IMG/VR virus record: IMGVR_UViG_2778261593_000004 | Span: 1 to 12,717 of that record | Strand: one strand, 5' to 3' | From: a virus | Lineage: Duplodnaviria > Heunggongvirae > Uroviricota > Caudoviricetes | DNA length: 12,717 nucleotides | Shown here: positions 3,800 to 12,717 of the stretch, one piece after another | Layout: each line of letters opens with the position of its first letter | Position numbering within the stretch: the stretch's first letter is position 1 | Program-made: the position numbers and the translations under genes | Notes under the pieces: model-generated | What the model saw: the letters and a program-made list of their open reading frames with translations, nothing else | What the model was told of the DNA's origin: nothing | The model's database searches: none

Positions 3800-3955
3800 T
3801 TACTCCTCAGGTTCGTAAGCTGTGAAGACAGCGACCTCCGTCTGGCCGGTTCGGATTCGTACCTCACAGAGGTCTTTCCTCGTTACCAGTGCCGTCGCTA
3901 TGACGGTTAAACAGATGACGATCAGGGCGATTAACATCGCCTTTTGCTGCTTCAT
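3800..3955 (-). CDS. hok: Hok-family type I toxin (HokD/RelF-like), 51 aa
   Basis: Translation MKQQKAMLIALIVICLTVIATALVTRKDLCEVRIRTGQTEVAVFTAYEPEE is an essentially exact Hok-family sequence. Below the ORF-track length cut-off, so found by manual translation. Confidence 0.9.
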   Translation of the reverse strand: MKQQKAMLIALIVICLTVIATALVTRKDLCEVRIRTGQTEVAVFTAYEPEE

Positions 3956-4011
3956 AGCCTGCTTCTCCTTGACCTTTCGGTCCGTAAGAGGCTAATCTCT
4001 ATGTGTCGCAT
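3952..4011 (-). CDS. Short leader ORF (19 codons) translationally coupled to hok (mok-like)
   Basis: ATG at 4011..4009, MRHIEISLLRTERSRRSRL, TGA stop overlapping the hok ATG (ATGA). Hok loci normally carry an upstream overlapping reading frame (mok) that controls hok translation. Confidence 0.4.
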   Translation of the reverse strand: MRHIEISLLRTERSRRSRL

Positions 4012-4075
4012 AGATATGGCCTCAGATTAATGTTAAGCGTCTTGCCGGACGCCGAATGTTAACTGGGGCTTTTCT
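3969..4075 (+). ncRNA. Candidate Sok-like antisense RNA with its promoter (boundaries approximate)
   Basis: Plus-strand TTGACC (3969-3974), 18-bp spacer, TAATCT (3993-3998), giving a transcript antisense to the hok leader/mok-like start; downstream nested inverted repeats (4033-4062) and ctatctgcc/ggcagatag (4073-4109). The 3' end is not defined by a clean terminator. Confidence 0.3.
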
Positions 4076-4511
4076 CTATCTGCCTTTTGGTGTTCATGCC
4101 TGAGGCAGATAGCCTCAAGCACCCGCAGCAATTCTAACTATCCAATAGATCAATGCCAACTTCTTTTCCTGCAACATCTCTCAACATAAGTGACCAAAAT
4201 TCACCCAATCAGCACAAAAGAAACATTTAAAGCGTGAATGCTACCGAACGTTCATTTCAATTACATCGTTTTGATTTTTAACAGTTTTCACCTCAACAAA
4301 TCAAATGGCATTAGCATTCATCATGGAAGAAAGACTGATAAAAATGATCATTTTCAATGACTTATGATCACACCGGGTATTGCCAAGTCATTCCTTTTAC
4401 GCCAGGATACCCACAAGTAAGTAGTCGAGGAGAGTTTGCCAATTTTTGCGATATAAATTTCAATGTCCGAAGAACCATTAATTGTTAATTGATTCTGTAT
4501 AAGGTTTTAAC

Positions 4512-12130: not shown

Positions 12131-12458
12131 TTTATCCTCCATTGAGGTTACTGGTTGAGAATGGAGACCACACGTGACAGCGTGTTGTCGTGCGCCGGAC
12201 ACGGATAAGAATCCGGCACTGACAGTTTACTGAAAGGATATATCCCTGAAAAGTCAGGGCATAACGCGAAAGCGCACGGCGAAGTTATTTCTCCCTCTGT
12301 TGCGTGCCACCGGCATCTTCGACCGTGCGCTTCCGGTTGTGGCAATCCGCGAAATGGCGCGGCGGTAAGTATGGCGAGGCTATCCTTTCCTCGAGATAAC
12401 ACCGGGTTGTCAGGTTGACCATACGCCTGAGTGACAACCCCGCTGCAACAACCCATGT

Positions 12459-12511
12459 TGATTACCTTTTGGCGACATCAGTTTCATTGCTGGCTGATGT
12501 CCGCCCTTTTT
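12459..12511 (+). ncRNA. dicF: DicF-like small RNA with intrinsic terminator (boundaries approximate)
   Basis: ttttggcgacatcagtttcattgctggctgatgtccgccctttttaaag: an 11-bp stem with one bulge (12471-12505) followed by 5 T; pattern resembles K-12 DicF as I recall it (uuuggcgguaucaguuuu...cugccgcccuuuuu); lies between dicA and a dicB-like start, as in Qin. Confidence 0.45.
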
Positions 12512-12672
12512 AAAGTGAATTTTGTGATGCGGTGAATGCGGCTCAGCGCACGCGGAACAGTTAAAACAAGCAACCTTATGGGTGAAATACTCCGGCGTTA
12601 ATTGTTAACTGGTTAACGTCACCTGGAGGCACCAGGCACCGCATCACAAAATTCATTGTTGAGGACGCGATA

Positions 12673-12717
12673 ATGGAAAAGTTATCATACAATGCCAGTA
12701 CGTCTGAACTTCGTTTC
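12673..12717 (+). CDS. dicB: Partial CDS (first 15 codons), DicB-like cell-division inhibitor
   Basis: ATG 12673 with GAGGA 7 nt upstream; MEKLSYNASTSELRF compares with K-12 DicB MKTLLPNVNTSEGCF (memory); continues beyond the window end. Confidence 0.45.
   Translation, partial: MEKLSYNASTSELRF

Follow-up and report, generated by a model that had tools for sequence, protein, structure and literature searches.

The dicF-dicB region and its inverted repeat

The window, that is, the whole stretch of 12,717 nucleotides analysed here, is a lambdoid prophage and shares 99.4% identity with a prophage of E. coli RM10740. The order on its + strand (repressor gene, small ORFs, DicF-like RNA, the cell-division inhibitor gene dicB, DUF1482 gene, exonuclease) is that of a Qin-type dicBF layout. 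The features of the dicF-dicB region, all on this strand, are the following, the helices P1 to P5 and the RNase III cuts being described in the next sections.

12456-12506, + strand: divergent DicF-like small RNA, with a terminator hairpin (12474-12501) and a U-run (12507-12511), placed as dicF is in K-12
12514-12534, + strand: 5' strand of helix P1, the left arm of the repeat (12516-12534) plus 2 pairs; predicted RNase III cut after U12525
12538-12553, + strand: hairpin P2 (GCGGC UCAGC GC-A-CGC), from the RNAalifold consensus on alignment A1; sequence almost invariant
12554-12593, + strand: P3, a 3-bp helix (12554-12556 with 12591-12593) around a variable insert (12557-12590)
12594-12620, + strand: hairpin P4, a 9-bp stem with the conserved loop UGUUAACUG, holding both GTTAAC motifs
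12622-12636, + strand: hairpin P5 (CCUGG AGGCA CCAGG), with U-A to G-C covariation in 10 of 25 sequences; also in the Rfam STnc100 consensus
12637-12657, + strand: 3' strand of P1, the right arm (12637-12655) plus 2 pairs; predicted RNase III cut between 12647 and 12648
12661-12717, + strand: Shine-Dalgarno sequence (SD) GAGGA (12661-12665) and start of the dicB-like ORF (ATG at 12673), which leaves the window at its end

A repeat search recovered the two arms that the first-pass annotation had described in the spacer between dicF and dicB: 12516-12534 (TGAATTTTGTGATGCGGTG) and 12637-12655 (CACCGCATCACAAAATTCA), each of 19 nt, 100% complementary and separated by 102 nt. The tandem gttaac it had pointed out within the repeat is there as well (12604-12609 and 12613-12618), and the sequence bears out the distance of 5 nt that it had given between the end of the 3' arm and the GAGGA at 12661-12665, which is followed by the ATG at 12673. 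Over the whole 12.7-kb window this is the sole perfect inverted repeat of at least 14 nt at a spacing of at most 300 nt; the runner-up, 21 nt at 76%, lies within sok. Chance can be excluded as the origin of the repeat, the only one of its kind in the window, since about 1e-5 repeats of 19 nt are expected (12717 positions x 300 spacings x 4^-19). The sok antitoxin RNA itself is full length (3953-4124, - strand; Rfam 107.5 bits) and adjoins the place where the near-identical RM10740 prophage has an annotated hokD.

The repeat had been thought peculiar because the K-12 spacer was held to be shorter and devoid of the second arm. Neither holds. In K-12 (locus L001) both arms are present, at 2445-2463 and 2574-2592, with a gap of 110 nt as compared with 102 nt in the window, and the K-12 spacer as a whole is slightly longer too. 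As DNA, the K-12 arms fail to match at two positions, which in + strand RNA become tandem G-U/U-G wobbles. A megablast search with a 418-nt region around the repeat found it in 4,720 of 5,426 complete E. coli genomes, with at least 80% of the region in 4,071 of them. The alignment with K-12 and other prophages that had been proposed as a check thus shows a repeat that is orthologous in K-12 and conserved in dicF-dicB loci. The first-pass annotation had itself counted against its reading a repeat conserved in all dicF-dicB loci with no effect on expression, or one from a known repetitive element family. This is largely what we found: the repeat is conserved in these loci and forms part of an RNA element, akin to STnc100, that recurs among prophages. 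It is an ordinary known feature, the conserved dicF-dicB stem of K-12 and thousands of other prophages; its supposed peculiarity to this prophage goes back to a mistaken view of K-12, and it carries little weight as a discovery. With about 90% identity, the dicF-dicB spacer of the E. coli type also turns up in MT713136 (Aeromonas phage AP1) and in PP818812 (Actinobacillus phage vB_Apl-pPE4), which, given the non-enterobacterial host labels of these records, looks like contamination or mislabelling.

Both neighbours of the spacer are divergent in the window. The position of the downstream ORF is orthologous to that annotated dicB in E. coli genomes, and the allele differs (MEKLSYNASTSELRF versus METLLPNVNTSEGCF). 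The difference from the METLLPNVNTSEGCF allele of the otherwise 99.4% identical prophage begins at codon 3, and every megablast alignment to the complete E. coli genomes ends at 12685. Upstream, the full Rfam DicF model matches 12456-12506 at 26.4 bits, below its gathering score of 48. The 5' single-stranded region and the loop of this DicF-like RNA (UUUCAUUGCUGG) are unlike those of K-12 DicF (UUUUACUCCGUGAC), so its targets may differ. Duplexfold energies of DicF against the ftsZ translation-initiation region could not be told apart from those of shuffled controls, for the K-12 and the window RNA alike.

Further upstream lies a structured segment, 12290-12450 (+ strand). Its homologue in K-12 forms the RNase III-dependent DicF precursor of 190 nt, and the segment has about 80% similarity to the stretch of phage P1 annotated as 'dicF-like region'. 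A motif shared with the spacer (GTGCGCTTCCnGTTGTGG-AAT) had raised the suspicion of a second family copy in this segment, which we rejected as a detectable member, as the best E-value of the covariance model R1 described below exceeded 2 there even with filters off. We also rejected a put-like antiterminator function for the RNAs flanking DicF: HK022 was absent from the blastn matches in the phage collection, and sensitive blastn against the HK022 immunity region (putL/putR) gave only matches with E > 1.

A structured RNA domain closed by the repeat

The first-pass annotation had proposed that the repeat forms a very stable long-range stem in RNA. Folding, one of the checks it had suggested, supports this for the dicB strand, where the stem lies just 3' of the DicF-like sRNA: for the RNA 12507-12680, the minimum free energy is -61.6 kcal/mol (z = -5.2 relative to shuffled sequences), and the repeat helix forms in both the minimum free energy and the centroid structure. 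In RNA, the 19-nt repeat is extended by the pairs G12515-U12656 and A12514-U12657 to a helix of 21 bp, named P1.

To collect related loci, we searched viral contigs and a single genome of each species with two patterns that avoid the arms; 25 copies with distinct arm pairs were then assembled into alignment A1. RNAalifold predicts for this alignment a consensus structure of five helices, P1 being the closing one. Every cell of P2 pairs; its columns are invariant, hence the absence of covariation there. P3 shows changes on both sides in 2 of its 3 pairs, and the length variation among loci falls in its insert, the inner length ranging from 98 to 125 nt. In P4, where 5 of 9 pairs show compensatory changes, one GTTAAC motif lies over the loop and the adjoining stem base and the other in the 3' stem strand. 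The loops of P4 and P5 are invariant although their stems covary. The dicF-dicB spacer is thus filled by a conserved five-helix RNA domain closed by P1.

Compensatory changes affect 13 of the 21 pairs of P1 among the 25 sequences of A1. Over the whole alignment 96.3% of the cells pair, a share that falls to 32-44% once the partners are shifted by 1-3 columns, and 21 of 43 pairs are altered on both sides. None of 500 shuffles reached the observed percentage of paired cells, the numbers of pairs or cells changed on both sides, or the covariation score; the observed count of further pair types was reached in 4 of 500. Some loci illustrate this at a glance, their arms being wholly different from those of the window yet complementary to each other, as in Citrobacter (L007; AGCAGGCTTTAAGGTGCGGTG / CACTGCACCTTAAAGTCTGTT) and in L152 and L211 (CAGACCTTGCAATGCAGTG / CACTGCATTGCAAGGTCTG). 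The structure is also specific to one strand. Read as + strand RNA, A1 has its 96.3% of pairing cells with 105 G-U cells among them, versus 87.7% for the - strand RNA, and R1, the covariance model built from A1, scores 169 bits on the + strand and 38 bits on the - strand. The mismatches seen in the arms at the DNA level are G-U wobbles in the + strand only. The repeat is therefore an RNA helix on the dicB strand, conserved through compensatory change and working on one strand only.

These observations bear directly on the idea that the repeat is a feature of the DNA, either the ends of a small, MITE-like inversion or insertion or a palindromic protein-binding site. The perfection of the repeat would fit such a view, as would the homology breakpoints that lie inside the element in L196 and L241. 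However, the arm sequence differs between loci while complementarity is kept, and the departures from perfect complementarity are G-U on the + strand, i.e. A-C on the opposite strand. The flanks (AAAG versus TTGT) form no target-site duplication, and the interior is itself a conserved structured RNA. An inverted orientation of the internal segment was found in none of 71 unique copies, all of which lie the same way round. Compensatory changes and one-strand wobbles contradict the small inversion or insertion suggested in the first-pass annotation, and a mobile element or invertible segment with terminal inverted repeats was rejected, since the flanks differ, the arms covary and the orientation is constant in the 71 copies. 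As the structure works on one strand only, inversion, insertion and protein-binding palindrome are excluded as its explanation; we regard any reading at the DNA level as extremely improbable. In the viral contigs L196 and L241, a recombination breakpoint interrupts the element. Its 3' half, made up of P4, P5 and the right arm, follows there on unrelated DNA, and these loci no longer have the inverted repeat.

The closing helix and RNase III

In K-12, a 72-nt DicF species is RNase III-dependent according to PMC5069750 and PMC9438474, and PMC2777011 includes the intergenic regions of the dicA-dicF-dicB transcript in a list of RNase III substrates; all three cite Faubladier, Cam and Bouche 1990. 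An RNA-seq study (Gordon 2017, Table S1) lists at location 1649470 an intergenic site 'dicF-dicB', marked 'Known: Yes', with 26 reads in the rnc mutant versus 0 in the wild type; this position, which does not have nucleotide resolution, lies 8 nt 3' of the K-12 left arm. The role in DicF 3' processing that the first-pass annotation had suggested for the stem agrees with both the 72-nt species and this site. DicF is annotated in K-12 at 1649382-1649434 (L001 2383-2435), which amounts to 53 nt. By coordinate arithmetic only, 19 additional nucleotides make up 72 and place the 3' end at L001 2454, on nucleotide 10 of the 19 of the left arm. The 3' end of the K-12 72-nt DicF is thus predicted inside TGAATTTTGT|GATGTGGTG, at K-12 1649453, and the equivalent in the window would be a cut after U12525.

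The properties of P1 are consistent with those of an RNase III substrate. The enzyme leaves a 2-nt 3' overhang and can accommodate a helix of about two turns, ~22 bp (PMC6212723), a size matched by the 21 contiguous pairs of P1. From the overhang rule, the second cut is predicted between 12647 and 12648. The positions between the cuts must in vivo be paired and include at least one G-C pair (PMC6212723); the pairs that lie between the two predicted cuts, G12524-C12647 and U12525-A12646, fit this rule. Among the 25 sequences of A1, the first of these two columns is GC in 22 and the second UA or CG in 22. Moreover, the closing helix has 21-29 pairs in all 90 dicB-type records with a DicF-type terminator motif upstream, whatever gene follows, some elements being counted twice in this table because of pattern matches one base apart; after their removal there are 79 dicB-type copies in all.

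We propose the following course of events. Transcripts reading through the DicF terminator into dicB would form P1, and RNase III would cut both of its strands, after ~12525 and before ~12648. The cut would set the 3' end of a 3'-extended DicF (72 nt in K-12) and separate DicF from the dicB mRNA, which would keep a 25-nt leader with the SD, while a structured RNA of ~122 nt would be excised as a by-product. The RNase III dependence is carried over by analogy from the K-12 literature, and the cut positions in the window are predicted ones. Since the K-12 reports, the coordinates and the cleavage rules agree, we consider that the repeat is probably the RNase III processing helix of read-through dicBF transcripts, as reported for K-12 in 1990. 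Read-through may be rare, as a 2023 preprint from the Vanderpool laboratory detected, in the conditions used there, no transcripts running on into dicB.

The K-12 Qin dicF site is the closest counterpart of the window helix. Both occupy orthologous positions in the same order (terminator, helix, SD, dicB), and their arms are identical save for the two wobble positions of K-12. The window differs in its perfect 19-nt core, where K-12 has two G-U pairs, in an interior shorter by 8 nt and in the divergence of both neighbours, the DicF-like sRNA upstream and the dicB allele downstream. RNase III sites are also found in other polycistronic early mRNAs of phages, such as the lambda N-leader and the T7 early intercistronic regions. 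There, likewise, a helix of about two turns lies between early-operon cistrons near the downstream ribosome-binding site, and cutting parts the upstream RNA from the downstream mRNA. No kinship in sequence with the lambda and T7 sites is expected; these are simple hairpins with an internal loop, whereas the window helix closes a large conserved multi-helix domain. The invariant loops of this inner domain would be superfluous for a plain RNase III site, which suggests that it has a further function.

Relatives of the spacer and other readings of the helix

On 12518-12650, the Rfam model of STnc100 (RF02076) scores 40.4 bits (E = 2.5e-7), short of the 47 bits set for gathering. In the cmscan alignment, the outer helix of the model falls on the inner part of the repeat and P5 is matched. 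The K-12 spacer scores 34.4 bits against STnc100, as compared with 70-165 bits for genuine STnc100 copies. Conversely R1, which was built from dicB-type copies, matches Rfam-called STnc100 loci at 50-68 bits, scores that are somewhat inflated because these loci were retrieved with the P5 pattern. As significant similarity is found in both directions, the dicF-dicB spacer is a sub-threshold, divergent relative of STnc100 and PasD, which are reported to be expressed prophage sRNAs (10.64898/2026.05.13.724894). STnc100 and PasD share the architecture of the spacer: a closing helix, AAU, a hairpin, a variable part, a hairpin with a U(G)UAAC-containing loop, then CCnGG-AGGCA-CCnGG. P2 differs, being GCGGCU..GCGCACG in the dicB-type copies and CCCCCU..GCGGnGGGG in STnc100. 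As the spacer copies score under the Rfam threshold, they may be worth a note to the curators.

The two types differ in their closing helix and in their surroundings, as follows.

Contiguous closing helix: mostly 6-9 bp in STnc100-type copies; mostly 20-22 bp in dicB-type copies, the rest ~10 bp
Terminator-like hairpin at most 160 nt downstream: 62 of 104 STnc100-type copies; 4 of 79 dicB-type copies
ORF start at most 90 nt downstream: 49 of 104 STnc100-type copies; 78 of 79 dicB-type copies

In the dicB-type copies with only ~10 contiguous pairs, a one-base bulge interrupts the helix and pairing resumes beyond it. The spacer of the window is part of the early-left operon, with an SD and an ORF coming next, whereas STnc100 is located in the prophage late region before a terminator.

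Relatives of both types occur in other settings. A dicB-type core with a 9-bp closing helix lies 44 nt upstream of terB in phage P7 (L323, 1507-1610), and another dicB-type core is found ~30 nt upstream of tciA in phage P1 (L325, 3340-3463), near the C1-controlled ban operon. The module is thus a recurring leader of small toxic or cell-division-related genes. The viral contig L217 (3521-6539) carries four tandem STnc100-like elements with a period of ~250 nt and a fifth one ~440 nt beyond. This array sits between a Q-like antiterminator gene and holin/lysozyme genes, a position where other lambdoid phages have tRNA genes or stx. STnc100-like elements occur in L144 and L164 too, and copies are spaced by exactly 253 nt in other contigs.

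The place of the helix immediately before dicB raises the question of whether it mainly governs dicB translation, by hindering or positioning ribosome loading, with or without RNase III, a role that would be compatible with processing. The 3' strand of the repeat ends 5 nt before GAGGA, nearly all dicB-type elements precede an ORF as listed above, and in partition-function folds the SD is unpaired with a probability of 0.04-0.20 in uncut read-through RNAs versus 0.69 in the predicted cut mRNA. The SD nevertheless is no part of the covarying helix, and its masking involves pairing with flanks (A1 columns 1-7 and 182-188) that lack conservation among loci. Cutting also lowers the accessibility of the AUG in these folds, and the long helix is found ahead of several unrelated genes, at varying spacings. 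The helix may affect dicB translation; that translational control is its main role seems doubtful to us.

The kinship with STnc100 leads to another reading, in which the spacer is primarily an STnc100/PasD-like sRNA gene, P1 its closing stem, and RNase III the enzyme that frees a functional RNA of ~122 nt acting as a regulator, a sponge or a protein ligand. It draws on the reciprocal matches between the two models, on the P4 and P5 loops that stay invariant on covarying stems, and on the expression of STnc100 and PasD as prophage sRNAs. Against it stand the score below the gathering threshold, the inflation of the reciprocal scores by retrieval with the P5 pattern and the scarcity of terminator-like hairpins after dicB-type copies; in addition, no RNA species from the dicF-dicB spacer is described in the literature examined. 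We find it unlikely that this is the primary role of the spacer. The inner domain itself may have a function, as an sRNA or a ligand of a partner, as the invariant loops together with the STnc100 kinship suggest. More broadly, the spacer might belong, as a form with a long stem, to a large superfamily of prophage RNAs comprising STnc100/PasD and the terB and tciA relatives in phages P7 and P1, in which the invariant loops would bind a putative partner and the ~21-bp helix would have evolved for RNase III excision from the operon. This scenario, too, we put forward as an improbable one.

We thus retain processing by RNase III as the probable role of the repeat helix. The RNase III helix is already known, and the STnc100 family link of the whole spacer is the sole point that is mildly new. 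The 13 of 21 pairs with compensatory changes put the RNase III site behind the 72-nt DicF on a structural, comparative footing, and the processing model predicts where the 5' end of the dicB mRNA would lie.
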